The notes: generated by a model not told the origin, from the sequence alone. Shown: positions 23,673 through 50,499, numbered from the stretch's first letter. The stretch is DNA of 64,000 nucleotides from Bacteroidales bacterium (GCA_963676725.1 OY781463.1:2701421-2765420); one strand, 5' to 3'. Program-made: numbers and translations.

Positions 23673-23849
23673 GCGGCAAAAATAGTATTTTTCCATAGAA
23701 GCAAGCAATAGTATAGTCGGGTGCCGAGGCATCAAAGATCAATCTGCTTTTGACATCAGGGAGGATTTGAGGAAGACAAGTTATCAAATTGGATTTTCAT
23801 TTCCCTATCCTAGGCACTATTGAAAATGCATTGGCATCCTTTCCCAATA

Positions 23850-25502: not shown

Positions 25503-25530
25503 ATCTATTTGATTGTATGATGATTTTTTG
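25461..25530. repeat. 70-nt exact direct repeat, copy 1 (5' end and upstream region of the 550-aa gene)
   Basis: ttggttcacattctttaatattcggacgaaacaaaagtacaaatctatttgattgtatgatgattttttg is identical to 39331..39400. Confidence 0.95.
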
Positions 25531-25580
25531 CTGAATATTTAAGGGGATAACAATGTTTTTAAGTGCAGACCAGCTTTTAA

Positions 25581-25718
25581 ACGACAAGCCAAAACAGCGT
25601 AGTAGAGATTCAAAACCACGAGCTAAACGAACAACTGGCACTTATCAGCCAATTGGATGAAGACGAGAAAAACGCTTTGATTAAAATTATTTATTCTATG
25701 CTTACTAAAAAAGAATGA
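25581..25718 (+). pseudogene. Possible C-terminal remnant of an XRE-type HTH regulator
   Basis: Start-less open frame ...ELNEQLALISQLDEDEKNALIKIIYSMLTKKE-stop. I recall tails like this on small Bacteroidota HTH proteins. There is no start codon or HTH portion. Confidence 0.25.
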
Positions 25719-25795
25719 AGGATTTATTAGATGGGAAGGCTAAGTTTTAGGGTATGAAAAAGCCCCACATTTGCGAGGCTTAGACTATTCAATTA

Positions 25796-26098
25796 TTAGT
25801 TCAAAATTGTCTCAGAGAAGAAAATAAATAATACAATCCAAATAATTGCTGATAACCAAGAAATTCCTAGAAATAATAAAATCTTGATTAAAAACTTTTT
25901 TTCATCCTTATTTATAGTTTCAGATTTATTAACAGTTCTCAAAATCCGGAATGCATCAATCGTATTATTAACATGCCCTGTATACTTTGGGTTTTCTCTT
26001 TGCATCAAACTTTTTAATTTCTTTCTATTTGCTAAATACAAAAGAAGGGAGATACCAGCGGGTATTGTTGAGATGTAGAAAATTATAATGTTATTCAT
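25796..26098 (-). CDS. Small membrane protein, putative immunity protein for cassette H
   Basis: 100 aa with two hydrophobic helices (IIIFYISTIPAGISLLLYLA; ILLFLGISWLSAIIWIVLFIFF). It lies directly downstream of the toxin cassette on the same strand and is AT-rich. Confidence 0.55.
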   Translation of the reverse strand: MNNIIIFYISTIPAGISLLLYLANRKKLKSLMQRENPKYTGHVNNTIDAFRILRTVNKSETINKDEKKFLIKILLFLGISWLSAIIWIVLFIFFSETILN

Positions 26099-26111
26099 AT
26101 CTATATTGTAT

Positions 26112-26357
26112 TTATCTCCTTGATCCAGGACGTGACCAAAAATCTCTTGATGGAGGTGAAAAAGTTATTGTATATGAAAAGTAAAGGAACCAGCCAGCAC
26201 CAACACCAATGTTTCCACCATAACCATTTAAATTATTACCATAATGATCTCGTACAGCACCATGACTCATATCTTTATATCCTTCAAAACTAAGGGGTGT
26301 AGGCCCAATAGATAAGTTTACTCCACTTGCCCAACCAGAAAAGTCATTCATACTCAT
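26112..26357 (-). CDS. Gly/aromatic-rich 81-aa ORF, ATGA-coupled to the cassette H glycine-zipper frame
   Basis: Its ATG overlaps the TGA of the upstream frame (aaaaATGAgt). It contains RDHYGNN, which resembles the [10 protein letters not shown] and EEHYISGSLY termini of cassettes B and F. Confidence 0.4.
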   Translation of the reverse strand: MSMNDFSGWASGVNLSIGPTPLSFEGYKDMSHGAVRDHYGNNLNGYGGNIGVGAGWFLYFSYTITFSPPSRDFWSRPGSRR

Positions 26358-27198
26358 TTTTTATTGGTTTGTGAATAACCCATTCCAGCACTTGCACCCC
26401 AACCAATAACTGCACCTAATGTTAAATACATCTTTGAGTTTCCATAGCTATCTACAACAGCTCCAATATCTCCCATTGCTCCAAATCCAGCAGCAGCGGC
26501 ACCGTTAGCAACTGAAATAACTTGGCCACGATTATCTTCATCACCCCACCAGCTGAGCCTTTATTCTCATTTGTTTTATCTATTTTATCTGTTTTGTTTT
26601 TTTTCTTGTCGCCATCACCCTCAATCTCATCAAAATTGATTTCATATCCATGCCACAATCCTTCTGGATCTTCCATCCATTGCGACCAAATGTCACAATC
26701 ATCAAAACCATGTGGATTCATCCCCGTTGGATCGATAAATTTAATAGGGTTATTAAAGCTATTGTTATATGGGCTCCAGCAATTCATTTCTTCTGCTTTT
26801 GGGTCAACAGAATGCCACCGGGCGATTTGAGGGTCATAAAACCTCGCCCCATAATCATACCAATCCAAACCAAAATCATCCTGCAGCTCACTTCGACTAC
26901 GCTCAGTGCAACGCTTTCCATTATACTTGTATTTATTCTCAGGGCTGGAGTTGGCAGAACTCAAACCGGCAATGTTCATCCCAAAAGGATAATAGGCATC
27001 TTCCTGCAAGACATTTCCGTTTTGGCTGAGGCTAATGCGGGTGTTTCCCAAATGGTCTTTCAGGAAGTACTGGTATTCGTATGTGTCCTCGTTTTGCTTC
27101 ATAATGCGGCCTTCGGAAGTGAGGATAAACTGGAGTTGGTTGTTTTCATACACAAAATTAGCAATATAATCGGATTGGTCAAGAGCACTGCCATCGGA
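26354..27198 (-). pseudogene. Rhs C-terminal toxin cassette H (frameshifted; glycine-zipper type C-terminal domain)
   Basis: Rhs core end SDGSALDQSDYIANFVYENNQLQF...LKDHLGNTRISL...QEDAYYPFGMN...[44 protein letters not shown]...NNPIKFIDPTGMN. The reading frame breaks near 26550-26560. The alternative frame (26354..26560) reads RLSWWGDEDNRGQVISVANGAAAAGFGAMGDIGAVV...GAVIGWGASAGMGYSQTNKK-stop. Confidence 0.7.
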
Positions 27199-27212
27199 TT
27201 ATTCGAGCTTTT

Positions 27213-27380
27213 TATTTGCCCGTCAAACACTGCCTGTGGGCTGCCATCTATGGTGTTAAAGGTGAGCCCGGCATGTTGTCCAAAATACCAATTATTGGCT
27301 TGTTTGTTTTGGGCATAAGTTAGTGTAGCTCCCAGAAGGAAGCTGGTCAATGTTATAGTATTTGTTGTCCGAAAAAACAC
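27213..27380 (-). pseudogene. Leader fragment L1: signal peptide plus the first ~33 residues of an NNWYFG-family gene, joined out of frame to cassette H
   Basis: MFFRTTNTITLTSFLLGATLTYAQNKQANNWYFGQHAGLTFNTIDGSPQAVFDGQI parallels residues ~28-64 of the 23850..25502 protein. Homology ends at FDGQI, and a TAA precedes the Rhs frame. Confidence 0.75.
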
Positions 27381-27449
27381 GAAACAAATATATGAATTTA
27401 ATAATCTTGCTTCTAAATAAAATGGGGGTTGGCGATATTATTTTATGCC

Positions 27450-27596
27450 CGAAAATCAACAATCATTGTCAGTCAGCTACCTGCGGCAAGCTGGTTCAAT
27501 ATCATTGGCGAAGCTACTATTGCCGATGCAATATTGGACCGGTTGATACATACTTCCCACAGAATTGAATTAACAAGGAGACAGTTTAAGAAAAAA
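27450..27596 (+). mobile_element. Remnant of the IS21-family helper ATPase IstB (C-terminal ~50 aa only)
   Basis: IIVSQLPAASWFNIIGEATIADAILDRLIHTSHRIEL matches the IstB C-terminal pattern (S-N/Q...W...G[DE]..[AL]A.AILDRL.H.[AS]H.[IL].L). There is no Walker region, transposase or terminal repeats. Confidence 0.6.
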
Positions 27597-27731
27597 AGTA
27601 ATATTGTCAGCCAATCGCGTTCTTTAATAACTTTACGAATCAGACGGGTCAATATCACCGGAATGTGCATTAATATTATACGGTGATGTTTTCTCTGCTT
27701 GTTCCTGTTCTTTTGATTTTATGAAGCAGTT

Positions 27732-27977
27732 TTAATTAAGTAAACAATACAAAAAAGCAATAAAATTAATCACAATAAAGGCATAAAGTGCAATACTGTA
27801 ATAAGATGTACTCCTGTATTGTGAAATATATTGGTAAAGAACAAAACTCAATAAACACGATGTAACTACTTGTACAGCAACTCCAGTTATTGATAAAACA
27901 AGATTAATCTCTGTGTTGCACAGATTAATAGAGAATGAAATACAAATTAATGCAGCTATAAAAAGTTTTTTTTTCAT
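27732..27977 (-). CDS. Small membrane protein, putative immunity protein for cassette G
   Basis: 81 aa with three predicted TM helices. Its start lies 2 nt after the toxin stop. Confidence 0.55.
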   Translation of the reverse strand: MKKKLFIAALICISFSINLCNTEINLVLSITGVAVQVVTSCLLSFVLYQYISQYRSTSYYSIALYAFIVINFIAFLYCLLN

Positions 27978-27979
27978 TT

Positions 27980-29185
27980 TTAATCATTTTCTTTTGAATA
28001 AACTAACTTTAATGAAAAATCAAGTGAAACATGGAGTACGCCGCCGGGTGTAATGATCAAAGGAACTTTTCCCCCTATTGCAGCACCTGTGCTTATTGTC
28101 GTTGAATTGTTCATGTTACTTATTGTTGTCTCACTTTGAGTAAAAGGTACACCAGTGCCTATGGTAACTGTTGCTTCAGAATTTAGATTTGGATCAATAG
28201 TATATTCAACCCCGTACCCTTTTGCCTGTGCTACCAAATTTAAGGAAGGATTTTCATTCTTTTCCGTTACAATATCCACCTCAGTTTTACCTGTATATAG
28301 TTCTGTTTCTGATTTAGCAGTAATACTAGTTTTATTCAATTCTATTGCAGCTCCGCCGCCCGCTTCTCCTTTAATATTATAAGTAACGCCTAACTCCTCA
28401 CTTACGGATCCTTCAAGTTTTGTTTCCAGCGTCGTGTTTTCAATAATATCATTTATTTTATTTTTTATACTTTTTATTGCTGATCGTAAAAGATTATATG
28501 CGGTAGTTTGAATCCTGTGGGCAATATAATTTTTGACTCTGTTTTTAAAGTCTTCATCTCTTGGGTCTGGCACATCATCAAATTCATGGTCGTTAGCCCC
28601 ATTAGGGTCAATACGCCCCAATGGGTTATTTTGAACATAGTTAAACGGGCTTAGCCATTCTCTTTCTTCTGTTTTAGGGTCGGATACGTGCCATCTGCCA
28701 ATAGAGGCATCATACATCCTCGCCCCGTAATCATACCAATCCAGGCCAAATTCATCCTGCAATTCCTTGCCGTTGTATTTGTATTTGTTTTCGGAACAGG
28801 AGTTGTTATAGCTTAAGCCTTTTATATTCATCCCATAGGGGTAATAGGCATCTTCCTGTAAAATGTTCATATCTTCATCGAAGGTAATACGGGTATTGCC
28901 CAGGTGGTCTTTCAAAGAATACTCATAAGAGGAACTGCCATCCTCATGCATTACTATCCTGCCATGGTTTGCCATTAAATAGGCAAGCTCCGTATTGTCC
29001 CCGTTTACATCAGAATACACAAAACGTCCGGCATAGTCAAACGTTTTGGATATCTGGTGGTCGATGCGGGTCTGTTTCCGCAGCTTTGTGCCAGTGGCCG
29101 TATATAGGTAATTGATTCCCTGCATAATGGTGCTTCTGGAACTTGTTCCGGTTACAATCTGCAAATAATTACACGCGATAATCAT
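27980..29185 (-). CDS. Rhs C-terminal toxin cassette G (beta-rich C-terminal domain of unknown family)
   Basis: ATG start. Conserved ...TGTKLRKQTRIDHQISKTFDYAGRFVYSD...LKDHLGNTRITF...QEDAYYPYGMN...YKYNGKELQDEFGLDWYDYGARMYDASIGRWHVSDP...NNPLGRIDPNGAN, followed by a unique Gly/Thr/Ser-rich domain with an alternating pattern. Confidence 0.75.
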   Translation of the reverse strand: MIIACNYLQIVTGTSSRSTIMQGINYLYTATGTKLRKQTRIDHQISKTFDYAGRFVYSDVNGDNTELAYLMANHGRIVMHEDGSSSYEYSLKDHLGNTRITFDEDMNILQEDAYYPYGMNIKGLSYNNSCSENKYKYNGKELQDEFGLDWYDYGARMYDASIGRWHVSDPKTEEREWLSPFNYVQNNPLGRIDPNGANDHEFDDVPDPRDEDFKNRVKNYIAHRIQTTAYNLLRSAIKSIKNKINDIIENTTLETKLEGSVSEELGVTYNIKGEAGGGAAIELNKTSITAKSETELYTGKTEVDIVTEKNENPSLNLVAQAKGYGVEYTIDPNLNSEATVTIGTGVPFTQSETTISNMNNSTTISTGAAIGGKVPLIITPGGVLHVSLDFSLKLVYSKEND

Positions 29186-29414
29186 ATGGTCTTAAAAAAA
29201 CATCAAATTTAATGATAACTGTTGTGTAATTAAAGTCTTTGTTGATTAATTGAATTTCAAGAAGAACTTGAAGTTATATATTACTGGTTTACATATCTGA
29301 ATCTCAAAAGTAATTGAATTATTATACTTACTAAACTGCTTGAAAAAATGGCAATTACATTTAACTTTGATTGCGTCAACACTAATTCCATATATTGCTG
29401 AAAGGCTCTATTCT

Positions 29415-29735
29415 TTAATTACCTTTAAGTTCTTTTATAAAGTATATTGGTGCATAAATTATATTTAAAAATATTAACAACAATAAATTTATAGTGCTAT
29501 CTTTTCTGTTTTTCCAAACTATAATATTGTATATCCAAAAAACAAAAGCAACTAATCCTGTCAATCTGGCTAATAAACTAGATGTGTACAATCCTATTTT
29601 CTCGGCTATCACTTTCTTTGCTTCATAATTATCAGCAGTCAGTAAAAAAATTGGAATTAGCAATATTAATAAAACATACACAATGCTAATTATCCAAAAC
29701 ACTATCCATAAATTTTTTTTTCTCATATTTCTCAT
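29415..29735 (-). CDS. Small membrane protein, putative immunity protein for cassette F (apparent paralog of 38032..38331)
   Basis: 106 aa with three or four TM helices. The C-terminal half FVFWIYNIIVWKNRKDSTINLLLLIFLNIIYAPIYFI aligns with FGFSIYNLYIWAKYDKRITIFFLLFFLMGLYTPFYYL of the cassette A partner. Confidence 0.6.
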   Translation of the reverse strand: MRNMRKKNLWIVFWIISIVYVLLILLIPIFLLTADNYEAKKVIAEKIGLYTSSLLARLTGLVAFVFWIYNIIVWKNRKDSTINLLLLIFLNIIYAPIYFIKELKGN

Positions 29736-29739
29736 ATTT

Positions 29740-30885
29740 TTAATAAAGAGACCCAGATATATAATGTTCTTCTATTGGATCATCTTTTTCTTTAGGGATT
29801 TCTATTGTTTCTGTTTTAGTTTTTGTCCTTTCATTATCTATATATTCAACACCAATAACTGCTTTAATGCCGAGTAAGATCGCTTTAACTCCTACTCCTA
29901 TTTCATAGCCTATTGAATTGGTTGTTGTAATGCCCTCATCACTTTCAACTACTGTCTCCTTAGACACAAGTGCCTGTATTTCTGTTTTTGACTTGGCAAA
30001 CGTTGGGTGTTCGTCTATAGCATATTCGCTTGATGTTGATTTTCCTCCACCTGGAATTTCTATATTTACCTCATAGTTAACATTTTTAGATTCTTGATTA
30101 AACAAAAACTTAACTTTACCTTCAGGCGTAATACTTAACCCAACTTTAGTCTCTCCAACTACTTTTCCACCACTAATTCCAAGATCTAAAACATCTCCAT
30201 AACTCAATCCAATTTGAGGACCAAAACTTCCCGTAAATTTCAAATAAATCTGCGTTGTTCCAGCTGGCGGATCACCTGGACCCATTCCCATCCAATCTAT
30301 ATAATGGATAGGATGATTAGCCGCATAAACAAATGGTGATTGAAAACTATATTTCGTAGCTAAGGGGTCAAGCGTGTGAAATCGGGCAATAGCTGGGTCA
30401 TAAAACCTCGCCCCATAATCATACCAATCCAAGCCAAAATCACCTTCCAACTCACTTCGACTACGCTCAGTGCAACGCTTTCCATTGTATTTGTATTTAT
30501 TCTCAGGGCTGGAGTTGCCAGAATTCAATCCAGCAATGCTCATCCCATAGGGATAATAGGCATCTTCCTGCAAAATATTCAGGTTTTCATCAAAGGTAAT
30601 GCGGGTATTGCCCAGATGGTCTTTTAAAGAGAACTCATATAAGGAACTGCCATCCTCATGCATTATTATCCGGCCTTGGTTGGCCATTAAATAGGCAAGT
30701 TGGGTATTGTCCCCATTTTGGTCGGCATACACAAAGCGGCCGCTATAATCCCATGTGGCAGACACTTGATGGTCGATCTTTGTCTGTTTGCGTAGTTTAA
30801 TGCCATTGGCTGCATATGAAAAGTTCACTGACTGCATAATCGAACCGTTGGTATTTGTTCCGGTACTATTAATCTTTTGAGGCAA
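29740..30885 (-). CDS. Rhs C-terminal toxin cassette F (orphan; no ATG at the homology boundary)
   Basis: The track start is TTG, six codons after a stop, and the homology boundary is sharp and shared with cassette C. Conserved block ...NGIKLRKQTKIDHQ...LKDHLGNTRITF...[44 protein letters not shown]...NHPIHYIDWMGMG. The C-terminal domain is unique and beta-rich, ending EEHYISGSLY. Confidence 0.75.
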   Translation of the reverse strand: MPQKINSTGTNTNGSIMQSVNFSYAANGIKLRKQTKIDHQVSATWDYSGRFVYADQNGDNTQLAYLMANQGRIIMHEDGSSLYEFSLKDHLGNTRITFDENLNILQEDAYYPYGMSIAGLNSGNSSPENKYKYNGKRCTERSRSELEGDFGLDWYDYGARFYDPAIARFHTLDPLATKYSFQSPFVYAANHPIHYIDWMGMGPGDPPAGTTQIYLKFTGSFGPQIGLSYGDVLDLGISGGKVVGETKVGLSITPEGKVKFLFNQESKNVNYEVNIEIPGGGKSTSSEYAIDEHPTFAKSKTEIQALVSKETVVESDEGITTTNSIGYEIGVGVKAILLGIKAVIGVEYIDNERTKTKTETIEIPKEKDDPIEEHYISGSLY

Positions 30886-31014
30886 ATTTAATAAATTACA
30901 CTTTTAAAATGTCGAGTTTTTGGGGAAGCTTACACATAATAATAAATATGTTTTTTAATTTAAAGCAAGCTCTCTAATTCCAAGTGCGTATGGATAATAC
31001 AGTGAGTTGTAATA

Positions 31015-31719
31015 TTAATCAATCTCTTTGTCTTTCAATCTGGGGTCGGCAATTAATATATAATCTTCCGAAACTCCTTTATAGAAACCCAAATTTTCAA
31101 TAGTGTATTTTTCCGTTAGCATAGTGTCAATTACAACTCCGTTATTAGTTAATTTATAAATTGTTGAAGATTGATAATAAACGCTGTCAGGTGTACAATA
31201 TGCTTCATGGAGGTCCGATCCTCCTAATTCAATAGTACCATCACCGTCTAAATCTCCATAATAAGAAGCTTTAGTTTTAGTTATCAATATACACTTCTCG
31301 TCTTTAATCTCCAATATATGATAATTATTCCCGAGAATTGGATCAAATTCCTCCAAAATTAAATATTCTAAATTATCCAGTACTAAAAACTTTACGCGAC
31401 CCCTATTAAGATAAAAGGATTCATTAGTTAGACTATTATAGACCAGATTTGACCTAATATATAAGCTGGGGTGAAGGTAAATCGTATCTCCTTTATCAAC
31501 TAGTCCTGAATCTGGTGCCACAATATATACTGAATCATTTATGTCAACCAACAAGAAGTTGTTTTTTTCTTGCTTTATGTCAATATCATAAGTTGTTTCA
31601 AGTTCGTATAGTGCATCTGGAATTGATGAGTGCTTTTGATTTTCAATAGTTGAATTATTGCAAAAACAACCAGAAAATAGAAAACAGCCGATTATGTAGA
31701 ATAATTCTATTGGCTTCAT
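31015..31719 (-). CDS. Lipoprotein, putative immunity protein for cassette E
   Basis: I chose the start MKPIELFYIIGCFLFSGC (lipobox LFSGC), ATG at 31719, 4 nt after the toxin stop. It contains a DGDG motif (YYGDLDGDGTIELGG). Confidence 0.6.
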   Translation of the reverse strand: MKPIELFYIIGCFLFSGCFCNNSTIENQKHSSIPDALYELETTYDIDIKQEKNNFLLVDINDSVYIVAPDSGLVDKGDTIYLHPSLYIRSNLVYNSLTNESFYLNRGRVKFLVLDNLEYLILEEFDPILGNNYHILEIKDEKCILITKTKASYYGDLDGDGTIELGGSDLHEAYCTPDSVYYQSSTIYKLTNNGVVIDTMLTEKYTIENLGFYKGVSEDYILIADPRLKDKEID

Positions 31720-31723
31720 AATT

Positions 31724-32923
31724 TTATTCAATGTCCCCGTCCTCAAACCTTCCTCCTTTCGTAAAGTCAAACCACCAACCTTCTTGAACAACCATTTCAT
31801 CATTACTACTTGAATTTTGAGAAGGGCTTTGTGTGACATTTTTACCAAACACTTGATTCTTAATGATTATCATGATCAAATTTATAAATGAAAGAGGATT
31901 TTTGTCTGAACTTTGATTATTCAAGTACATATTAGACTTAGGTCTGCTAGGCCTATCATCTACAGCTGTTTTATCTTTGTTTAAAATAAAAAATTGCGGA
32001 GATGATTTAGAGCCAAATGTTTGCGAGATAGTGCCAACTTTATTTATTTTGCCTACATTCATTACTAAAACCTCATCCTCGCTTTTAGGAGAAACCACAG
32101 CAATATGACCACCAAATTTCCCGGGTTTCTCTCCACTACCATCATTTGATACATAGGAGGCGATGACTGTTATTCCTTTTTTTGCATAATAGATAGCATT
32201 CTTTTCATTAACAGGCGTTGCGAAATTGTTGTTGACGTACTTGCCAACAGCTCCTCTAAGCTTCCAGCCCATTTGATTAGCTGTGTAATCATTTATTTCA
32301 TAGTCTCCTAAAGAATAGTCCCTGGCTTGATTCAAAATATACTGAACTCCAATATTACAATATGTAGTTTCACCATTCTTGGGCCATTTTTTAATAGCTT
32401 CATTGCCAGCCGCAATTAAACCTTTTATTGTTGGGAAAATTCCATTCCCATCTGGGTCTATAAAAACAATGGGATTGTTAGTAGCGTAGTTATAACACGA
32501 AAATGAATAAAATTCTTCTGAAAGCATATCCAAGACAAACCATCGTCCTAGCCCTGCATCATACATCCTCGCCCCATAATCATACCAATCCAAACCAAAC
32601 TCATCCTGCAGCTCACTTCGACTACGCTCAGTGCAACGCTTGCCGTTGTATTTGTATTTGTTTTCGGAGCAGGAATTGCTATAGCTTAAGCCTTTTATAT
32701 TCATCCCATAGGGATAATAGGTATCTTCCTGCAAGACATTTCCGTTTTGGCTGAGGCTAATGCGGGTGTTTCCCAAATGGTCTTTCAGGAAGTACTGGTA
32801 TTCGTATGTGTCCTCGTTTTGCTTCATAATGCGGCCTTCGGAAGTGAGGATAAACTGGAGTTGGTTGTTTTCATAAACAAAGTTAGTAATATAATTGGTT
32901 TGGTCAAGAGCACTGCCATCGGA
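31724..32923 (-). CDS. Rhs C-terminal toxin cassette E (candidate papain-fold Cys/His amidase or peptidase C-terminal domain)
   Basis: The frame is open from 32923 (SDGSALDQTNYITNFVYENNQLQF...) and the first ATG is at 32827. Core end ...YKYNGKRCTERSRSELQDEFGLDWYDYGARMYDAGLGRWFVLD...NNPIVFIDPDGNG. The C-terminal domain has TTYCNIGVQYIL (Cys) and FGGHIAVVSP (His), as in NlpC/P60/CHAP-like enzymes. Confidence 0.7.
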   Translation of the reverse strand, partial: SDGSALDQTNYITNFVYENNQLQFILTSEGRIMKQNEDTYEYQYFLKDHLGNTRISLSQNGNVLQEDTYYPYGMNIKGLSYSNSCSENKYKYNGKRCTERSRSELQDEFGLDWYDYGARMYDAGLGRWFVLDMLSEEFYSFSCYNYATNNPIVFIDPDGNGIFPTIKGLIAAGNEAIKKWPKNGETTYCNIGVQYILNQARDYSLGDYEINDYTANQMGWKLRGAVGKYVNNNFATPVNEKNAIYYAKKGITVIASYVSNDGSGEKPGKFGGHIAVVSPKSEDEVLVMNVGKINKVGTISQTFGSKSSPQFFILNKDKTAVDDRPSRPKSNMYLNNQSSDKNPLSFINLIMIIIKNQVFGKNVTQSPSQNSSSNDEMVVQEGWWFDFTKGGRFEDGDIE

Positions 32924-32937
32924 TTATTCGAGCTTTC

Positions 32938-33102
32938 CATTTGCCCACCAAAAACTGCTTTTGGGCTGTCATCTATAGTGCTAAAGGTGAGCCAAGCATT
33001 ATGGCCAAAATACCAATTGTTGGCCTGCTTGCTTTGGGCATGAGCAAAAACAGCTCCTAAAAGCAGTGTGAATAATAATAAATATGGAGCATGATAATTC
33101 AT
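32938..33102 (-). pseudogene. Leader fragment L2 (signal peptide plus NNWYFG N-terminus) with the same out-of-frame junction as L1
   Basis: MNYHAPYLLLFTLLLGAVFAHAQSKQANNWYFGHNAWLTFSTIDDSPKAVFGGQM is followed by the same junction sequence as L1 (..SSNNPMAVLLT.PIILL..). Confidence 0.75.
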
Positions 33103-33261
33103 TTAAATGTAATTCCCTTTCTAACTAGAAGATTGCACTCTGACGTTAAGTGTTCCGCCGGATTCACAATGTTTTGAATACCATGGCATAGTATATATTA
33201 ATTGATATATAATATTATGCTACTATTTGCAGTCAAGCTAAATATCAATGTTTTATTCATA

Positions 33262-33459
33262 TTATTTTTTTTTCAAATATGAATAGGAAAATTCAGCGAA
33301 CATATAGCCAATATATATTCCTGCCTGTAAAAAAAATAAATATGTAAATACTTTGTGCAAACGTTCATGTAGAAAGAAAAAAAATAAAAAATATAACCAA
33401 AAAACCAAAACTACAATGATGCGCGAATTAGAGGCAAGCCAATATTTAAAACCATTCAT
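33262..33459 (-). CDS. Small membrane protein (second immunity-type ORF after cassette D)
   Basis: 65 aa with two TM helices. It overlaps the upstream small ORF by 14 nt. Confidence 0.4.
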   Translation of the reverse strand: MNGFKYWLASNSRIIVVLVFWLYFLFFFFLHERLHKVFTYLFFLQAGIYIGYMFAEFSYSYLKKK

Positions 33460-33670
33460 CTTTCTTGAGATTAATTGCTGATATTAATATAGCGAAAAGC
33501 ACTATTAATTCTGATATTCCATATAGCTTAGAATACTTATATTCAATATACTCTCCAAAAAATATTGAAAACAGAATTTGTGCGAAACCAATTACTAAAC
33601 TAGTAATATGAATCTTTTTTGCTAAACTGTTATTCAAACTCTTCTTTTTCCTTTCTTTTTTTCGCTTCAT
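33446..33670 (-). CDS. Small membrane protein, putative immunity protein for cassette D
   Basis: 74 aa with a basic N-terminus and two TM helices. It overlaps the 3' end of cassette D by 41 nt. Confidence 0.45.
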   Translation of the reverse strand: MKRKKERKKKSLNNSLAKKIHITSLVIGFAQILFSIFFGEYIEYKYSKLYGISELIVLFAILISAINLKKDEWF

Positions 33671-34817
33671 TGATTAAGTGTTTTTCCCATCTTTTTATCC
33701 GATCCTTCTCATAGTCTTCTTTTTGTTTCTTATCAGCATTTTCCCAAGCGTCTGGGTCTGTTTTTTTAATGTGCTTGCCAACAACTGACTCAAAATCATT
33801 TAGACGATAAAATCTAGTATTTTTGTCTTCATTTGGATTACTAAAAAATTCTTTTCCCATATCTCTTCCTTTTTCATCTTTTTCGTTTTGTGTTTGGTCG
33901 TATGGCCTCTTTGAAGGATCCTTATTAAAAAGATGATTAAAAGCATCTGCCGCTGTGGCAATTGTTACCACTACTGCCGCGGTCACAAGTTTAGGATTTC
34001 CTTCCGGATTACCTTTCGGCTTTCCTTCACCACATGAGTTGAGGTTTGAGTTGTTTTTTCCTATATTTTTACTATGATTTCTAGCATTCTTCAGTTTCTC
34101 CTTTTGAGAACGAACCTCTCTATTTTCTTGTTCTTGTCTTTCGTCACGAAGATCTTCCCAATATTTATAAGTTATATATGTAGTTATGGCTGTAGTAGTT
34201 ACCGCTGCTTGATAAATAGTATAAATGATAAAAGGGTACTCTCCATTCTTATCTATAAATATAACAGGGTTATTGACTGCATAAGCATATGTTGTTTGAA
34301 ATCGATACAATTCAGCTTTGGGATCAATTGAATGAAACCTCCACAAAGCCGCATCATACATCCTCGCCCCATAATCATACCAATCCAAACCAAACTCATC
34401 CTGCAGCTCACTTCGACTACGCTCAGTGCAACGCTTGCCGTTATACTTATATTTATTCTCAGGGCTGGAGTTGGCGGTACTCAAACCGGCAATGTTCATT
34501 CCAAAAGGATAATAGGCATCTTCCTGCAAAATATTCAGGTTTTCATCAAAGGTAATGCGGGTATTGCTCAGGTGGTCTTTTAAGGAATACTCATATGCAG
34601 GGCTGCCATCTTCCTCTATCGTGATGCGCCCCTGTGCAGCCATTAAATAAGCAAGCTCCGTATTGTCCCCGTTTACATCAGAATACACAAAACGTCCGGC
34701 ATAGTCAAACGTTTTGGAAACTGGTGGTCGATGCGGGTCTGTTTCCGAAGCTTTGTGCCAGAGGCCGCAATAGGTAGTTAATTCCCAGTATGATAGTGTT
34801 CCTTGAGCTTGTTTCAC
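33630..34817 (-). CDS. Rhs C-terminal toxin cassette D (5' region frameshifted relative to cassette G; TM-plus-charged C-terminal domain)
   Basis: ...SKTFDYAGRFVYSDVNGDNTELAYLMA...LKDHLSNTRITF...YKYNGKRCTERSRSELQDEFGLDWYDYGARMYDAALWRFHSIDP...NNPVIFIDKNGEY. Upstream of SKTFDY the DNA matches cassette G but lacks 1 nt (ggaaactgg versus ggatatctgg). The C-terminal domain has a TM-like YPFIIYTIYQAAVTTTAITTYITY and a long K/E-rich tail. Confidence 0.7.
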   Translation of the reverse strand: MKQAQGTLSYWELTTYCGLWHKASETDPHRPPVSKTFDYAGRFVYSDVNGDNTELAYLMAAQGRITIEEDGSPAYEYSLKDHLSNTRITFDENLNILQEDAYYPFGMNIAGLSTANSSPENKYKYNGKRCTERSRSELQDEFGLDWYDYGARMYDAALWRFHSIDPKAELYRFQTTYAYAVNNPVIFIDKNGEYPFIIYTIYQAAVTTTAITTYITYKYWEDLRDERQEQENREVRSQKEKLKNARNHSKNIGKNNSNLNSCGEGKPKGNPEGNPKLVTAAVVVTIATAADAFNHLFNKDPSKRPYDQTQNEKDEKGRDMGKEFFSNPNEDKNTRFYRLNDFESVVGKHIKKTDPDAWENADKKQKEDYEKDRIKRWEKHLINEAKKRKEKEEFE

Positions 34818-34902
34818 TTAAGCTGATCTTTTAATGTAAATTTGATCAATAATACTTTTAAAATGTCCATTTTATTGAGAAGCCAACATCTATTAAAATC
34901 TA

Positions 34903-35280
34903 TTATTCCTTATATATTATGATTCCATTAATTTTTAGTTTTCGATCGTTAACAACTTTTACCATATGCTCTCTTTTGTCTATGAATGCTGGTGAAAATG
35001 TTTCCATGAGGCCATATTTATAACATTTTAATACTATACCTCTATTTCTTTTATAACTCCATGTTCCTTTGCATGTTTTATGTGAATAATTACCGATAAT
35101 TCTTAAGTTAAAAGTGCTGTCACTGTTCAACTGCAAAATATAGTAATATTCATTTTTTGTTGGGCGGCTCTTATATATGCCTTGAAAATTATCATGTTGC
35201 ATGTAATAATTTGAGCTACATGAGAATAGCAATATAATAAGAAATAGATGCAAGTTAGTCCTGATAATAATAATCCCCAT
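34903..35280 (-). CDS. Lipoprotein, putative immunity protein for cassette C
   Basis: 125 aa, MGIIIIRTNLHLFLIILLFSC (lipobox). It overlaps the toxin 3' end by 26 nt. Confidence 0.55.
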   Translation of the reverse strand: MGIIIIRTNLHLFLIILLFSCSSNYYMQHDNFQGIYKSRPTKNEYYYILQLNSDSTFNLRIIGNYSHKTCKGTWSYKRNRGIVLKCYKYGLMETFSPAFIDKREHMVKVVNDRKLKINGIIIYKE

Positions 35281-36526
35281 AAGTATCTCCTTTTACTATA
35301 CTTTCATTACTTGGTAGATTTTGTAATGCTTTATTATTTGGATACGCCTTAAGCCAATCTTCCCTCTTAGAATAAATGTCTAAAGGATATTGTGCCGTAT
35401 TAGCCTTTCCATTAGGCCCATAAAAACTACCGTCATCTATATTTTTCACCCAACTTCGGGTAATTAGCTCATATTTATTCGCAATTCCATAAGATTGAAT
35501 ATTTTGAACAGAGACTGGGGAAACATTAAACTGCGCCCGATAGGCTTCCACTTCATTTTTAAGATCGACTAAAAAAGCTAATCCACTGGATTTGAAAAAA
35601 GCTATTTCCCCTTCCATAAATTGTTTAACATGCGTCACCTCATGGATTAGTACAGCAGCATTAGTATAAATAACATTAATTTTATTATCCTCTAATAATT
35701 CTAGAGTGCCAGCTTTCCCATTTACGGAACCTTCCATCGGCGTCAATACAAACGTCTGTTCCTCAGTGGCCTCCATATCATCCATGTGTTTAAGAGATAC
35801 CTTTAAACGAAATATCCTCTTATTTAGCCTTTCTTTTTTCTTTTCGCTGTTTTTTTCAGTATGTAGCTTATTGGTCAGCCTCCCTACTAATTTTTCCAAA
35901 AATCTTCTTTGACGCTCAAACTCTTCTTGACTGGCAGGGTCAATATCCATTCCTGTGGGATCTGTATAGCGAACGGGATTATTTGCAAACATTCTGTATG
36001 GACTAATTGGGTGGTATTTTTCAAGAAGCGGATCCATGCTTAATGTCATGGTCAGAGAAGCGTCATAGAATCTTGTTTCAAAATCATAGCAATTTAGTCC
36101 AAAGTCCTCCTGATGTTCTTTGCCGTTGTATTTGTATTTGTTTTCAGAACAGGAATTGTTATAGCTTAAGCCTTTTATATTCATCCCATATGGGTAATAG
36201 GCGTCTTCCTGTATAATGTTCAGATCTTCATCAAAGGTAATGCGGGTATTGCCCAGATGGTCTTTTAAGGAATATTCATAAGATGAACTGCCATCCTCAT
36301 GCATTACTATCCTGCCATGGTTTGCCATTAAATAGGCAAGTTGGGTGTTGTCCCCGTTGTTGTCTGCATAAATAAAGCGGCCGCTATAATCCCATGTGGC
36401 AGACAATTGATGGTCGATCTTTGTCTGTTTGCGTAGTTTAATGCCATTGGCTGCATATGAAAAGTTCACTGACTGCATAATCGATCCACTGGTATTTGTT
36501 CCGGTACTATTAATCTTTTGAGGCAA
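35255..36526 (-). CDS. Rhs C-terminal toxin cassette C (HExxH metallopeptidase-like C-terminal domain; orphan, TTG at the boundary)
   Basis: It has the same 5' homology boundary as cassette F. ...YKYNGKEHQEDFGLNCYDFETRFYDASLTMTLSMDP...NNPVRYTDPTGMD. The C-terminal domain contains AAVLIHEVTHVKQFMEGE. Confidence 0.7.
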   Translation of the reverse strand: MPQKINSTGTNTSGSIMQSVNFSYAANGIKLRKQTKIDHQLSATWDYSGRFIYADNNGDNTQLAYLMANHGRIVMHEDGSSSYEYSLKDHLGNTRITFDEDLNIIQEDAYYPYGMNIKGLSYNNSCSENKYKYNGKEHQEDFGLNCYDFETRFYDASLTMTLSMDPLLEKYHPISPYRMFANNPVRYTDPTGMDIDPASQEEFERQRRFLEKLVGRLTNKLHTEKNSEKKKERLNKRIFRLKVSLKHMDDMEATEEQTFVLTPMEGSVNGKAGTLELLEDNKINVIYTNAAVLIHEVTHVKQFMEGEIAFFKSSGLAFLVDLKNEVEAYRAQFNVSPVSVQNIQSYGIANKYELITRSWVKNIDDGSFYGPNGKANTAQYPLDIYSKREDWLKAYPNNKALQNLPSNESIVKGDTYGDYYYQD

Positions 36527-36544
36527 ATTTAAAAAATATATTCA

Positions 36545-36739
36545 TTTAATAAATACGCTGGAGTAACCTTCTCCCTGAAATATTTGCCCACCAAAAACTG
36601 CTTTTGGGCTGTCATCTATAGTGTTAAAGGTGAGCCAAGCATTATGGCCAAAATACCTTTGTTGGCTTGTGAGATGTGCTGCGAAACGCCTACTAATATG
36701 TTGAAAATAAAAAGTTAGATAATAATACTTTTGCAACAT
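36545..36739 (-). pseudogene. Leader fragment L3 (degenerate signal-peptide region; retains ..YFGHNAWLTFNTIDDSPKAVFGGQIFQGEGYSSV)
   Basis: It is homologous to L2 and to residues ~39-72 of the 550-aa protein (DGQIDQSEGCASI). There is a deletion in the AQ.KQANNW segment, and a stop lies immediately upstream of cassette C. Confidence 0.65.
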
Positions 36740-36787
36740 GGCACACTTCCAAGTAGATTTTTATTACACGCTATCCTAATGTAAAAA

Positions 36788-37264
36788 TTATTTAATATTT
36801 AAGTTGTCAATCACTGCTATAATGTTTTTTAGGTCACTGTCTTTCCATTGATTAACTCTACTTTCCATTATCTCTGCAATATATTTATCTTGGTTTTTAA
36901 AAACCAACGTGTTTTTGCGAATACCATATCCAACTTTTTGTTTGTAGTACTCATATTTAAGCAAATAATACGGAATGGAAACCGATCGTTTCCAAAAGAT
37001 ATATCTATAATAGAAAATAGTACATAGCTGTTTATTCTCGGAAAATGCAACTTTATAAACCACTCTGCCTTTATTGCGACTTATCATTAATATTATAATC
37101 AAAAGAACAATTAACTGAATACCTATCCAATACGTATAAAAAAAAGAAGCACCTTTAGCAATAAAAACAAAATTTATAATTGGTAGGATGTTAAATTCTG
37201 AATTATACTTACTATACCAATAAAACTTTTTTTTAAAAACCTTCATAATGGGTATTTTATTCAA
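36788..37264 (-). CDS. Membrane protein, putative immunity protein for cassette B
   Basis: 158 aa with two TM helices near the N-terminus followed by a soluble domain. It lies 17 nt downstream of the toxin stop. Confidence 0.5.
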   Translation of the reverse strand: MNKIPIMKVFKKKFYWYSKYNSEFNILPIINFVFIAKGASFFYTYWIGIQLIVLLIIILMISRNKGRVVYKVAFSENKQLCTIFYYRYIFWKRSVSIPYYLLKYEYYKQKVGYGIRKNTLVFKNQDKYIAEIMESRVNQWKDSDLKNIIAVIDNLNIK

Positions 37265-37281
37265 TTTACATGAATGTTGTG

Positions 37282-38001
37282 TTAATAAAGTGATTTATTT
37301 CTATAGTGATCACGCAATGCTTCTTCAGTTGGATCCATCTCTTCTACCTGTTCTTTAGGATTCATTGTTTTATTAATAATTTCATTAAAATTCTCTTTTA
37401 CTGAATTTATCGCATTTTGAATTTTACCACCAACAGATTCAAGGAATTCTTTACCGGAGGATACAATAAACTTGGTCGGTTCAGAGGCAGTAACAAGCAT
37501 ATTTGCACCCGAAACAGCACCGTCTATTGTATATTTAGGAGATCCTCCTGTAAGGCCGACTCCTAAATCCACTACAGCCCCTGCTTCTCGTAATCCTGAA
37601 CCTTCCATATCAAAAGCTTTTTCGGCAGTAGCTGCTGTTAATTCACCTAAGCCTCCCGGTACATTGTTCTCCCCATCATTAGCGGCACCATCAATAATTT
37701 GTGCCGTACCCAGAGCAATTGTTCCACTCCCGCTTATAATTAAAACTACACCAGCTGGACCCCCAACTCCCGTCGCAGCTAGACCAACCCCTCCGACCCA
37801 TTGGGTAACACCTCCAGCAACAGTAAGGCATCCTAGAGCAACATCCCAGCCATCTTCTCCGTTAATATCAATAAATCTCATTGGATTATTATATGTATAA
37901 TGGAATGGGGTTAATGAATAGTATTTTTCAGCTAAAGGATCAACAGCATGCCACCGGGCGATTTGAGGGTCATAAAACCTCGCCCCGTAATCATGTCTTA
38001 A
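37282..38001 (-). pseudogene. Rhs C-terminal toxin cassette B, 5'-truncated within the core (starts at ..[10 protein letters not shown]); glycine-zipper C-terminal domain
   Basis: The open frame from 38001 reads [52 protein letters not shown]... and the first ATG is at 37881. The C-terminal domain is Gly-rich ([29 protein letters not shown]) and ends [10 protein letters not shown]. Confidence 0.7.
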
Positions 38002-38031
38002 TCACCTGCCAACAAATTATAGTGAAATACA

Positions 38032-38331
38032 TTATACCCACCCTTTTCTTTTTGCATTAAGATAATAAAATGGGGTGTACAGTCCCATAAGAAAGAAAAG
38101 AAGGAAAAATATAGTTATTCTTTTGTCGTATTTCGCCCATATGTATAAGTTATAAATAGAAAATCCAAACGTTACATATGATAATATACTACGAATACAG
38201 GAAAAAACATCCCCAATTAAAATATCTTTTAAAAACATTAATTTGAATATCGATGAAAGGAAAATACCAATGAATACTGCAAATAATAAAAAATTCGATA
38301 TTAGTGCGACGGTTAATACAGTTTTTTTCAT
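38032..38331 (-). CDS. Small membrane protein, putative immunity protein for cassette A
   Basis: 99 aa with three TM helices. It is an apparent paralog of 29415..29735. Confidence 0.6.
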   Translation of the reverse strand: MKKTVLTVALISNFLLFAVFIGIFLSSIFKLMFLKDILIGDVFSCIRSILSYVTFGFSIYNLYIWAKYDKRITIFFLLFFLMGLYTPFYYLNAKRKGWV

Positions 38332-38343
38332 AATAAATATTAT

Positions 38344-39372
38344 TTAATAAAGTTCGCCATTTCTAAAATGCAACAGCATTGCCTCTTTTATAGGAGATAA
38401 TGTTGGAGTAATAGATTTTGATTTATTATTATCCAAGTCAGAATTGTTGTTATTGACCTTATTGCTACTGGGTGTATATTTTATTTGTAATTCTGCTCCT
38501 ACTCCTACCATAAGAGCATTTACACTTTGACTTATTCCGAAACCAAAGCCGTCACTACTTGCAGACACTTCGGCGCGACCAGCTCCTACAGAAACAGTTG
38601 GTTTAGGGTCATCATCTTCTTTGGCTTTATTTTCAGTATTCGATGATATTATTGGACTGACATTTGTCTTTGAGCTTTCAAATGTGTATGGTCCCAAACT
38701 GAGAGAATAATTGTCAAAATGTCCTTCGGTTGTAACTCTGTTAAATTCAGGACATACATTGAAATTACCAGTTTCGGTATCGTAGCTAAAAGAGATGGTA
38801 AGTGTATTCTTTAGGCTTCCGTCAAAATCATAATTTAAACTATATGGTGTTTGAGTAAAAGGAATCTTTCCGCTAAAACCAATGCTTCCACTACCCATAG
38901 ATAAAGAAAAACTAAAAGACCATTCATCATTTCCATCTGGATCTATATAAAAAATAGGATTGTTATTAACGTATAAATAGGGAGAGGTGTTGTGATTTCC
39001 CTCTGATAAATTATCAATCACATGCCACCTCCCCAAAACCGCATCATAAAACCTCGCCCCGTAATCATACCAGTCCAATCCAAACTCATCCTGCAGCTCA
39101 CTTCGACTACGCTCAGTGCAACGCTTGCCGTTGTATTTGTATTTGTTTTCGGAGCAGGAATTGCTATAGCTTAAGCCTTTTATATTCATCCCATAGGGGT
39201 AATAGGCGTCTTGCTGCAAAACAGTTCCGCTTATTCTATGGGTGACGGGTATTTTATCGAACCGAATCAATGACAATTGCTTGGCTTCTAATGCACAATA
39301 AGCGGTACCATTTGTATGTATGGATGCGGTTTGGTTCACATTCTTTAATATTCGGACGAAACAAAAGTACAA
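38344..39372 (-). CDS. Rhs C-terminal toxin cassette A, fused at its 5' end to a copy of the first 14 codons and upstream region of the 550-aa gene
   Basis: The N-terminus MYFCFVRILKNVNQ is identical to that of 23850..25502 (part of the 70-nt repeat; TTG start). It continues ...LQQDAYYPYGMNIKGL...[43 protein letters not shown]...NNPIFYIDPDGND. The C-terminal domain is beta-rich and ends LLHFRNGELY. Confidence 0.7.
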   Translation of the reverse strand: MYFCFVRILKNVNQTASIHTNGTAYCALEAKQLSLIRFDKIPVTHRISGTVLQQDAYYPYGMNIKGLSYSNSCSENKYKYNGKRCTERSRSELQDEFGLDWYDYGARFYDAVLGRWHVIDNLSEGNHNTSPYLYVNNNPIFYIDPDGNDEWSFSFSLSMGSGSIGFSGKIPFTQTPYSLNYDFDGSLKNTLTISFSYDTETGNFNVCPEFNRVTTEGHFDNYSLSLGPYTFESSKTNVSPIISSNTENKAKEDDDPKPTVSVGAGRAEVSASSDGFGFGISQSVNALMVGVGAELQIKYTPSSNKVNNNNSDLDNNKSKSITPTLSPIKEAMLLHFRNGELY

Positions 39373-39400
39373 ATCTATTTGATTGTATGATGATTTTTTG
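39331..39400. repeat. 70-nt exact direct repeat, copy 2
   Basis: Identical to 25461..25530, offset by 13,870 nt. The flanks diverge on both sides. Confidence 0.95.
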
Positions 39401-39439
39401 TGCTAAAATAACAATAGGTATAGGCAAATTACCTAAACA

Positions 39440-39517
39440 CTATTTATTAGGCTGTTTGTTTTGGGCAAACCCTCTATCAGCCCATAAAAGCTGGTACAGC
39501 AATAGTAGAAATTTCAC
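39440..39517 (-). pseudogene. Leader fragment L4 (signal-peptide-like VKFLLLLYQLLWADRGFAQNKQPNK-stop)
   Basis: It contains the FAQNKQ signal-peptidase/N-terminus junction shared by L0-L2 and is truncated by a stop after 25 codons. The possible start is GTG. Confidence 0.45.
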
Positions 39518-39590
39518 ATGATTGGCAAAAAAAGGTTTGACTACTTTGGGTGGCGCTGCATATCTGAATTTAAAGCCGTAATTTTGCATC

Positions 39591-40583
39591 ATGTCCATCA
39601 ATACATTAAACCGCAAACAGGCTATTCTAGCCATGAATCAGGCAGCAGCAGCAAATGAAGCCTTTTTCTTTACCATTGATTTTGATGTGCAAAACTGTAT
39701 TTTTATTCTGCGAAAGGATCTAGAAAAATCGGGGATTTCTTTTCGGATTGGCACCATCAAAAACGAAAATAATTCTACGCCAAGCAAAAACCTAAAGCCG
39801 GAAATTGTGGCGTCACCCCCATCCTACCTGCAATATAAAGCCGGTTTTGATTCGGTAATGCAGCATTTGCAGTTTGGCAATACCTATCTCACAAATTTTA
39901 CATGCTCCACACCCATAAAAACAAATATCCCTGCAGAAGAAATCTTCCAAAGAAGCCAGGCCAAATACAAATTATTTGTCCCGGGGCATTTTCTGGTTTT
40001 TTCGCCCGAATGTTTTGTGAAAATCAATAAAAATGGCCGTATTTTTTCGTACCCAATGAAAGGGACCATAGACGCTTCAATACCGGATGCAGCACAAAAA
40101 ATACTATCCGACAGCAAAGAAATGGCCGAACATAATACCATTGTTGATTTAATCCGCAATGACCTGAGTAGTATTGCTGAAAAAGTACGCGTAACAAAAT
40201 TCCGATATATCGACGAACTAAAAACCTCTTCTAAAACGCTTTTGCAGGTCAGTTCAGAGATTTCAGGGCAACTCCCGATCAACTGGCAGGAAAATCTAGG
40301 GACATTAATTTTCAAACTTTTACCCGCCGGCTCCATTAGTGGGGCACCAAAACAGAAAACCATTGAAATCATCAGGGAAGCAGAAGGAACCCAAAGAGGA
40401 TTTTATACCGGGGTTTGTGGCTATTTTGATGGCAGCACACTCGATAGTGGCGTTATGATCCGTTTTATTGAAATGCAGCATCAAAATATGATTTACCGCA
40501 GTGGTGGCGGAATTACAATCAATAGTGATGCGCGAAAAGAATACGAAGAAATGAAAGACAAAATATATGTGCCAATATCTTGA
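39591..40583 (+). CDS. pabB: Aminodeoxychorismate synthase component I (short form)
   Basis: Chorismate-binding signature LLPAGSISGAPKQKTIEIIREAEGTQRGFYTGVCGYFDG. The 330-aa size fits the short Bacteroidota PabB. pabC follows and pabA is nearby. Confidence 0.8.
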   Translation: MSINTLNRKQAILAMNQAAAANEAFFFTIDFDVQNCIFILRKDLEKSGISFRIGTIKNENNSTPSKNLKPEIVASPPSYLQYKAGFDSVMQHLQFGNTYLTNFTCSTPIKTNIPAEEIFQRSQAKYKLFVPGHFLVFSPECFVKINKNGRIFSYPMKGTIDASIPDAAQKILSDSKEMAEHNTIVDLIRNDLSSIAEKVRVTKFRYIDELKTSSKTLLQVSSEISGQLPINWQENLGTLIFKLLPAGSISGAPKQKTIEIIREAEGTQRGFYTGVCGYFDGSTLDSGVMIRFIEMQHQNMIYRSGGGITINSDARKEYEEMKDKIYVPIS

Positions 40584-46972: not shown

Positions 46973-46994
46973 TTTTCGAGTTGATGGTTACGAA

Positions 46995-50345: not shown

Positions 50346-50499
50346 GCCCCTAATCTTCAAGATTTTAGCTTAACTTTTTAGACACAGATGTGTTTTGCTT
50401 GATTCGACTTACTTCGGCTACGCTTGTTTCGAGGGTCTCAGCACTAAAGGACAAGCTCAATGCATCGCATCGCAGCACGGGTCGCTTACAACAAGCCGC

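Follow-up and report, generated by a model that had tools for sequence, protein, structure and literature searches.

A 64,000-nucleotide stretch of the genome of a Bacteroidales bacterium (GCA_963676725.1 OY781463.1:2701421-2765420; the whole stretch is called the window below, and positions are counted from its first letter) contains an array of orphan Rhs C-terminal cassettes, five of which carry the same 24 nt within the Rhs core, where they are translated as RCTERSRS. This insert is one unit of a widespread family of hairpin repeats of about 24 nt, and among Rhs cores it is derived and confined to a narrow clade. The account that we consider probable is that the insert is a passenger akin to repetitive extragenic palindromes (REPs) and small dispersed repeats (SDRs), which would have entered a tolerant loop of the Rhs core, been translated there, and been shuffled among cassettes by recombination.

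The array occupies positions 26452-39372 on the minus strand and comprises cassette A, a remnant B, and cassettes C to H, delimited from open reading frames (ORFs), their translations and TccC/SGS homology; what the cassettes encode is only the final portion of the Rhs shell. The cassettes are homologous by phmmer to TccC2 (6l7i), TcdB2-TccC3, SGS1 and SGS4; they carry the C-terminal core pattern of Rhs/YD-repeat proteins (YxYxGK...GLxxYxYGARxYDPxxGRFxxxDP), and the closest proteins in the database are annotated as RHS repeat-associated core domain proteins, while Pfam returned no match on the short cassette fragments themselves. On the plus strand, ACTTCGACTACGCTCAGTGCAACG matches exactly at 26890, 30454, 32615, 34410 and 39100, with no match in 100 shuffles. 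The coding strand is the minus strand, on which the insert CGTTGCACTGAGCGTAGTCGAAGT reads CGT TGC ACT GAG CGT AGT CGA AGT; this places RCTERSRS after YKYNGK and before ELQD or ELEG in cassettes H (26890-26913), F (30454-30477), E (32615-32638), D (34410-34433) and A (39100-39123). Each of the five minus-strand copies is identified by exact match, translation and the family model described below, the cassette H copy scoring 32.3 bits (E 8e-7). In a seven-way DNA alignment, a single clean gap of 24 nt is seen in each of cassettes G and C, giving empty sites on the minus strand at 28765-28766 in G (AAG/GAA, from the DNA alignment, the orthologue at L001:4518-4541 being filled) and at 36118-36119 in C (AAA/GAA, from translation and the DNA alignment). 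A first inspection made from the sequence alone (the sequence-only reading) had described the same 24 nt in five of seven cassettes and its absence from G and C, as the exact matches and the alignment gap bear out.

Units of the family consist of a short variable head, the core CTGAGCG[G/T]AG[C/T]CGAAG and one or two closing nucleotides, with a natural length of 24 nt, and base pairs that covary close the core. In viral contigs, a scan with CTGAGCGKAGYCGAAGT gave 87 matches in 73 stretches. The more specific 20-mer CACTGAGCGKAGYCGAAGTG was found in at least 120 stretches in a scan of one genome per species, against about four expected by chance (estimated for 596 Gb, both strands and equal base frequencies), which speaks against the coincidence of a common short motif that the sequence-only reading had allowed for. 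Among the matches listed, carriers in the Bacteroidota are many and include Flavobacteriales, Sphingobacteriales, Cytophagales, Chitinophagales, Saprospiraceae and Bacteroidales; those in the Cyanobacteria include Nostoc, Chamaesiphon, Oscillatoriales and Geitlerinema; and further carriers are Candidatus Scalindua, Leptospiraceae, Spirochaetaceae, some Gammaproteobacteria and Anaerolineae.

At least two additional Watson-Crick pairs extend beyond the 16-nt core in 71 of 93 copies, where 5.8 would be expected. The closing pairs covary (CG 43, UA 26, GC 11), the second pair is unpaired in 8 of 92 copies, and the observed covariation score was reached by none of 500 shuffles and by no slid register, every one of which scored lower. 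Because the flanking bases pair and covary, the element is a short hairpin whose apical part is conserved and whose closing stem varies. Three known folds were rejected for the core by inspection: a hammerhead (G8 and A9 are absent), a k-turn (the 3-nt bulge is absent) and a tRNA T-arm (which would have to be closed by a C-C pair).

All five Rhs copies have the form CA-CTGAGCGTAGTCGAAG-TG, and CA...TG are the commonest closing pairs in the family. A covariance model of the family (the CTGAGCGKAGYCGAAG hairpin repeats), built solely from copies in unrelated viral contigs, assigns 31.8-32.3 bits to the Rhs copies and 31.4 bits to the copies in a satellite farther along the window, all 11 with E of about 1e-6, and finds nothing better than E of about 1 in the rest of the 64 kb. 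The exact Rhs 24-mer also occurs in a non-coding repeat cluster of a metagenome-assembled Chamaesiphon genome (L098:4193), with the same neighboring G on both sides as the Rhs insert. No match was returned by Rfam for the window (at gathering thresholds), the satellite region or five motif-rich loci (E up to 1), by the literature searched with the exact repeat sequences, or by the REP catalogue supplements of PMC3733652. Sub-families with other apices, such as CCTGAGCCTGTCGAAGG and CCTGAGCTTTG..TCGAAGG, are nested with the family at L098:4150-4230, L141 and L174, and from their sequences suggest a larger super-family built on GAGC...TCGAA.

The 17-mer ACTTCGRCTACGCTCAG matches 11 times in the window, five times in the Rhs cassettes and six times in units of a 240-266-bp satellite at 46990-50350, which lies between two convergent genes, one for a methyltransferase (46238-46972, plus strand) and one of the PEMT family (50500-51015, minus strand). 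The satellite has about 13 units (six long, four short "TG" and four short "GCA", the partial first unit counted), and also contains other short repeats, for example CCCGCAGATTACGCGGATTTTCGCAGA. The long-unit copies, on the minus strand, lie at 47193-47218 (minus strand CGACCTGTGCTGAGCGTAGCCGAAGT), 47460-47485, 47726-47751, 47992-48017, 48736-48761 and 49002-49027; all six rest on the 17-mer match, the family model and inspection of the units. Long units read CGCTT-ACTTCGGCTACGCTCAGCACAGGTCG-CTCAAC, and short units read CGCTT-TG-CTCAAC (n = 4) or CGCT-GCA-CTCAAC (n = 4), so that 25 nt stand in place of one, or 26 in place of two. The net difference of 24 nt given by the sequence-only reading therefore holds; a single clean 24-nt insertion does not, since it would need one extra substitution. 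A related copy that the same reading had seen near 50411-50425 is real, and is a satellite-type unit on the minus strand (50411-50485; partial model match at 50414-50424) split after CTG by exactly 48 nt, with its two parts at 50411-50424 and 50473-50485 and an interruption made of two degenerate 24-nt units, nested within it. The idea of a tiny palindromic element, found at some sites and missing at others, in frame within coding sequence as well as in a non-coding repeat, is thus supported, both inserts being units of one family.

Among Rhs cores outside the array the insert has a narrow distribution. It is present in 10 of the best 120 relatives in a word-indexed search, these being the closest matches only. 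When 1.84 billion representatives were searched exhaustively with HMMER, about 17 of the best 150 matches had it, all of them 153-450 residues long, as orphan cassettes are. It is lacking in full-length relatives, P0260 (1194 aa) among them, and all 79 of the 79 closest Joint Genome Institute (JGI) metagenome relatives are without both the insert and the core motif. Solved homologues are gapped at RCTERSRS, by exactly eight residues in SGS1 and SGS4 and by six in TccC2. Other Rhs homologues have unrelated extras of 4-6 residues in the same loop, from which it follows that the position of the insert is length-tolerant. An origin by tandem duplication of adjoining Rhs sequence was rejected, the core of the insert being identical to the cross-phylum consensus.

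The sequence-only reading had raised the possibility that RCTERSRS is no more than ancestral coding sequence of Rhs, lost from cassettes G and C, and that its likeness to the satellite is coincidental. Most cassettes of the clade are indeed filled (21 of 25), as ancestry would have it, but every Rhs core outside the closest clade is without the eight residues, the full-length P0260 included, and the gap in solved homologues is exactly eight residues long against SGS1 and SGS4. Moreover, the insert shares its core exactly with a non-coding repeat found across phyla, its full 24-mer recurs in a cyanobacterium, and its known variants are non-synonymous only, with none synonymous, the opposite of what protein-level selection would leave. 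We regard ancestry as very improbable.

The insert is also polymorphic between close relatives, as the sequence-only reading had proposed looking for in the Rhs cores of related strains. The syntenic pabB-GATase region L001 has chromosomal flanks that are 96.4-99.7% identical to the window, and cassette G aligns to L001:4131-6093 with 94% identity over about 1.5 kb and a single 24-nt gap, which is the insert, so that G is empty where its orthologue is filled. The 63 nt upstream of the indel are identical in the two, and the downstream side differs by no more than two substitutions directly beside it, GAAT standing against GAGC. The borders of the indel in G share no microhomology, and no target-site duplication was found at the Rhs insertion site or at sites in heptamer arrays (described below). 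Filled cassettes number 21 of 25 in the window together with L001-L003, two of three in L282, and none of three in L281, which is from another genome.

The filled or empty state shows no relation to the phylogeny of the flanks. Identical core haplotypes occur both filled and empty (for example IAGLSSANSSPENKYKYNGK, IAGLSYSDASPENKYKYNGK and IAGLSAANFSPENKYKYNGK); in neighbor-joining trees of either flank, the seven empty cassettes require six or seven changes of state, as random labels would; and the nearest neighbor of almost every empty cassette is filled. In the four-gamete test, 40-70% of site pairs fail along the whole core, indicating that the cores are mosaic, and filled cassettes are no more mosaic than empty ones. 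The window (23097-40583) and L001 differ in the cassettes that they hold between the pabB-like and GATase genes, despite the near-identical flanks, and the H toxin of the L001 strain sits on an unrelated "KYLYNGK" core.

These observations are also what one might see if an active element homed to the Rhs site and excised precisely, each filled cassette then being an independent or semi-independent event. The independence of the filled or empty state from flank phylogeny would follow, as would empty sites that are free of scars and offer no border microhomology to drive slippage deletion; the uniformity of the 24-mer (see below) is as expected for young copies, and clean, duplication-free insertions as well as nested ones are known at other loci. 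We nevertheless think homing improbable. No enzyme was found in the 193 motif-bearing loci or the window, and no source copy in the window; the GAAT/GAGC difference beside the G indel fits a short conversion tract from a neighboring cassette; and since the cores are demonstrably mosaic, recombination alone is sufficient.

The search for an enzyme covered the 193 motif-bearing loci and the window and found no Y1 homologue, class 2 REP-associated tyrosine transposases (RAYTs) being searchable only weakly with the profile used. Because RAYTs are single-copy genes, their absence near sampled copies is little proof. A Y1_Tnp gene does adjoin the Rhs arrays of L002 and L003, and by the motifs DHVH, WQ and YIMNQEEHH it belongs to subclass 1.2 of Cyanobacteria and Bacteroidetes (Quentin 2018, PMC6006769), a subclass listed in the literature as having no REPs. 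This IS200-like Prolixibacteraceae gene lies in a MacB/FtsX efflux cluster (L276-L280, about 3860-4640; L002:8491-8952), a position conserved in Maribellus and Draconibacterium relatives, and is flanked by a different hairpin, GTCGC-GTA-GCGAC, followed by GNNGTTNTGGTAG. Gene and hairpins together look like a REPtron, judging from sequence. A link between this gene and the 24-nt units was set aside: it has hairpins of its own and no relative near the sampled units, and its adjacency to the arrays looks incidental.

In the passenger account that we favor, one unit would have entered the Rhs core of a narrow, Prolixibacteraceae-like Bacteroidota lineage without target-site duplication, landing in the loop between YKYNGK and ELQDxFGLDWYDYGAR. 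Being eight codons long, with five of the six frames through its core free of stops, it would simply be translated as RCTERSRS, and it would be tolerated because the length of this loop is already variable among Rhs homologues. The filled or empty state would then pass between paralogous orphan cassettes by the short-tract recombination that makes the cores mosaic, repeated insertion and excision being an alternative route to the same pattern; the outcome would be the five of seven filled cassettes in the window, the 21 of 25 when the three closest loci are included, the none of three elsewhere, and the difference between near-identical strains. The satellite carries another unit of the family, and the copy at 50.4 kb shows units nested in a unit. 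The mobility of the unit we infer from the coexistence of filled and empty sites; the insert is likewise presumed to have no function of its own in Rhs, with recombination as the probable route by which it spread.

Several observations weigh against this account. No mobilizing enzyme was found near any of the 193 motif-bearing loci, and no free-standing unit occurs in the 64-kb window outside the Rhs array and the satellite, so that no local source is visible. Six of 24 positions differ between the satellite variant and the Rhs unit, and the borders of the Rhs unit are shifted by one base relative to clean insertions in cyanobacteria. The insert is also far more uniform than its surroundings, for which mere carriage as a passenger would not account: across 20 distinct filled cassettes, one of its 24 columns is variable, compared with at least six in each 24-nt flank window, and none of its eight third codon positions varies, compared with 40 of 50 in the flanks. 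The two variants known, RCAERSRS and RCTKRSRS, are both non-synonymous. The near-invariance may mean that the insert is younger than the polymorphism of its flanks and spread in tracts hardly longer than itself, or it may reflect a constraint on the insert at the nucleotide level. Cassette G and its orthologue differ at 1.5% of positions near the insert, so that few neutral changes are expected since the strains split and the insert may simply be young.

A nucleotide-level constraint would be explained if the 24-mer were kept as a nucleic-acid signal, either as a recombination block or hairpin for toxin swapping or as a regulatory or processing hairpin in the mRNA. Invariance at all third codon positions beside polymorphic flanks, with two variants that are both non-synonymous, would fit such a signal; cassette homology ends a few tens of nucleotides downstream of the insert, and with its invariant neighbors the insert forms the longest block of perfect identity common to the filled cassettes. 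The length of this block is approximately the minimum for RecA-dependent exchange in Escherichia coli. Against a recombinational role, four-gamete incompatibility has no peak at the insert (0.50 across it, within the 40-70% found along the core), the empty cassettes are equally mosaic, and the sole crossover that can be placed, seen where two different cores bear the H toxin, falls on the downstream side of the insert site at a distance of about 40 nt. Against a role in the transcript, the Rhs-context fold is no more stable than those of shuffled sequences (z +0.7 as RNA, +0.8 as DNA), and the family has no strand bias relative to genes. A recombination hotspot was rejected on the flat four-gamete scan, and a strand-specific RNA-level function on the unbiased orientation and ordinary fold, which leaves the recombination or processing signal of the sequence-only reading unsupported. 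A retained signal of either kind appears unlikely to us.

Across the family, copies in called ORFs make up 22% of the total, while 85% of the sampled DNA is genic, and at viral loci 35% of copies lie in long open spans, compared with 70% of random positions. Orientation relative to neighboring genes is unbiased (32 versus 38), which argues for a DNA-level element. An inverted partner lies within 120 nt of 34% of copies, and direct partners begin at a spacing of 24 nt, with tandem units of 24-nt period in L021, L044, L053 and L078. In Chamaesiphon (L183, L152) a 24-nt unit cleanly breaks a heptamer array, the periodicity being kept and no nucleotide duplicated; such clean 24-nt interruptions of heptamer arrays are seen in both Chamaesiphon and Nostoc contigs. 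Units nested within other units also occur, the 48-nt interruption in the window being one example. Units also sit at the tip of a longer hairpin, such as a terminator, in 11-12% of copies compared with 1-3% of controls (at least 5-6 further paired bases); the enrichment is real, yet this is a minority context, and the view that units generally sit at terminator tips was rejected.

Units lie within coding sequence in genes other than Rhs as well. A viral contig (L046) encodes a DnaG-type primase of 1130 residues, with a Zn ribbon at residues 4-97 and a catalytic core from residue 190 followed by Toprim, and the linker between Zn ribbon and catalytic core contains three units, which are read in different frames and do not all point the same way, two orientations being present (DFDSAQSP, PSTPLSHQ and CLSVAED); phage homologues of this primase have about 60 fewer residues across the linker region. 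The 16-nt core has a stop codon in one of its six reading frames. A 24-nt length and a stop-poor core make insertions into ORFs intrinsically frame-preserving, so that the in-frame state of the Rhs insert is no evidence of selection.

Further arrangements were noted. A 250-residue ORF without a Pfam match on another viral contig (L038:4630-5379) holds three reverse-orientation units in frame (TSTPLRG, TSAPLSE and TSAPLSN). A Marinicella contig (L104:3190-3380) has six tandem units with a period of 34 nt rather than 24, and at L003:3600-3910 and L002:1560-1800 tandem degenerate units (GGGTCACTGAGCGGAGTCTATA...) end in one perfect unit, a short way upstream of a gene for a CARF/Card1 nuclease at the edge of another Rhs cassette array.

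A stronger proposal makes the unit a mini-element that is shared across phyla and actively mobile. A host or phage enzyme, probably working on single-stranded DNA hairpins, would copy it 24 nt at a time and leave the target unduplicated, and the unit, with its eight stop-free codons, would routinely add eight-residue modules to proteins. We advance it tentatively, as a possibility that we would not bet on; were it true, the Rhs polymorphism between near-identical strains would be the element caught in the act.

The surroundings of the array are as follows. It is flanked by pabB-like and GATase genes, assigned from Pfam matches of the neighboring genes, and no full-length rhs gene is present at the array locus (window 26452-39372). 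Small ORFs downstream of the cassettes are presumably immunity genes. A remnant cassette is a toxin-only ORF (37282-37881, minus strand) that opens with the end of the Rhs core and is without the insert region. A 550-aa neighbor gene (23850-25502, minus strand) has copies of its 5' end within the array at 27214-27315, 32936-33053 and 39330-39400, containing a signal peptide and "QNKQANNWYFG", with one 71-nt stretch 100% identical. The N-terminus of this gene, MYFCFVRILKNVNQ, is joined to cassette A in a fusion.

Orphan Rhs toxin/immunity cassettes exchange through recombination in the conserved core, for example in the Rhs loci of Salmonella and Serratia. The array described here is like these in having core fragments each with a toxin, a content that differs between near-identical strains, and mosaic cores; it is unlike them in having no full-length rhs gene, in the copy of a neighbor gene's 5' end that each block carries, and in the repeat unit inside the core. 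Such arrays are a tractable test bed, with dozens of paralogous target sites and with both filled and empty alleles among strains otherwise 96-99.7% identical. They also carry a warning: what looks like a lineage-specific gain of eight residues by a toxin core has turned out to be a non-coding repeat copied into it, and such indels call for caution before they are read as protein adaptation. Rickettsia palindromic elements (RPEs), of about 100-150 bp and not known outside Rickettsia, resemble the present units as palindromic repeats that lie in frame within genes and are translated and tolerated in surface or linker regions; they differ in that the unit here is 24 nt (eight residues) and is present across phyla. 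Miniature inverted-repeat transposable elements (MITEs), marked by terminal inverted repeats together with a target-site duplication, differ from the unit, which has no target-site duplication at Rhs or heptamer-array insertion sites.

REPs are imperfect palindromes of 20-40 nt with a strong intergenic bias that occur as singlets, inverted dimers and clusters (PMC3733652, PMC6006769, PMC3116915), and frame-preserving REPs are occasionally found inside ORFs, including replication and repair genes and tnpAREP (PMC3733652, PMC6006769). The present family resembles REPs, bacterial interspersed mosaic elements (BIMEs) and REPINs as a short imperfect palindrome with many, mostly intergenic copies, frequent inverted dimers and in-frame copies in ORFs. 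The hallmark of REPs is a conserved stem with an unpaired GTAG/GTGG or CGTC tetranucleotide at its foot (PMC3733652, PMC6006769). Here, by contrast, the apical 14-16 nt are conserved across phyla and the closing stem is variable and covarying, GTAG occurs only within the core and only in its T variant, and no RAYT gene was found near the copies sampled (193 loci and the window), the Y1 gene beside two Rhs arrays having a different hairpin.

We file the family with the small dispersed hairpin repeats of the REP/SDR kind, and in behavior it is closest, by description, to the SDRs of Nostocaceae. The latter (SDR4-6), in the account of Elhai et al. (2008, Genome Res 18:1484), are said to be hairpin-capable units of 21-27 nt dispersed in many copies; their insertion is reportedly precise and leaves the target unduplicated, with heptamer tandem repeats and other units among the sites entered, and we know of no enzyme that they encode. 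By this description the two share a hairpin unit of similar length (24 nt in the present family), the lack of duplication, nesting and insertion into heptamer arrays. What appears new is the occurrence in Rhs toxins and the breadth across phyla, and to our knowledge in-frame copies in Rhs toxins and a phage primase have no earlier description. Nostocaceae SDRs are cited in passages of PMC5861425, PMC4390886 and PMC3116915, and are reported from Nostocaceae only (PMC5861425). The present family is unlike them in spanning Bacteroidota, several cyanobacterial orders, Scalindua, Leptospira and viral contigs. Its 14-16-nt core is virtually unchanged from Bacteroidota to Cyanobacteria, Planctomycetota, Spirochaetota and phage contigs, and the family extends the class of very small dispersed repeats, which includes in-gene REPs, RPEs and the cyanobacterial SDRs, well beyond Nostoc.

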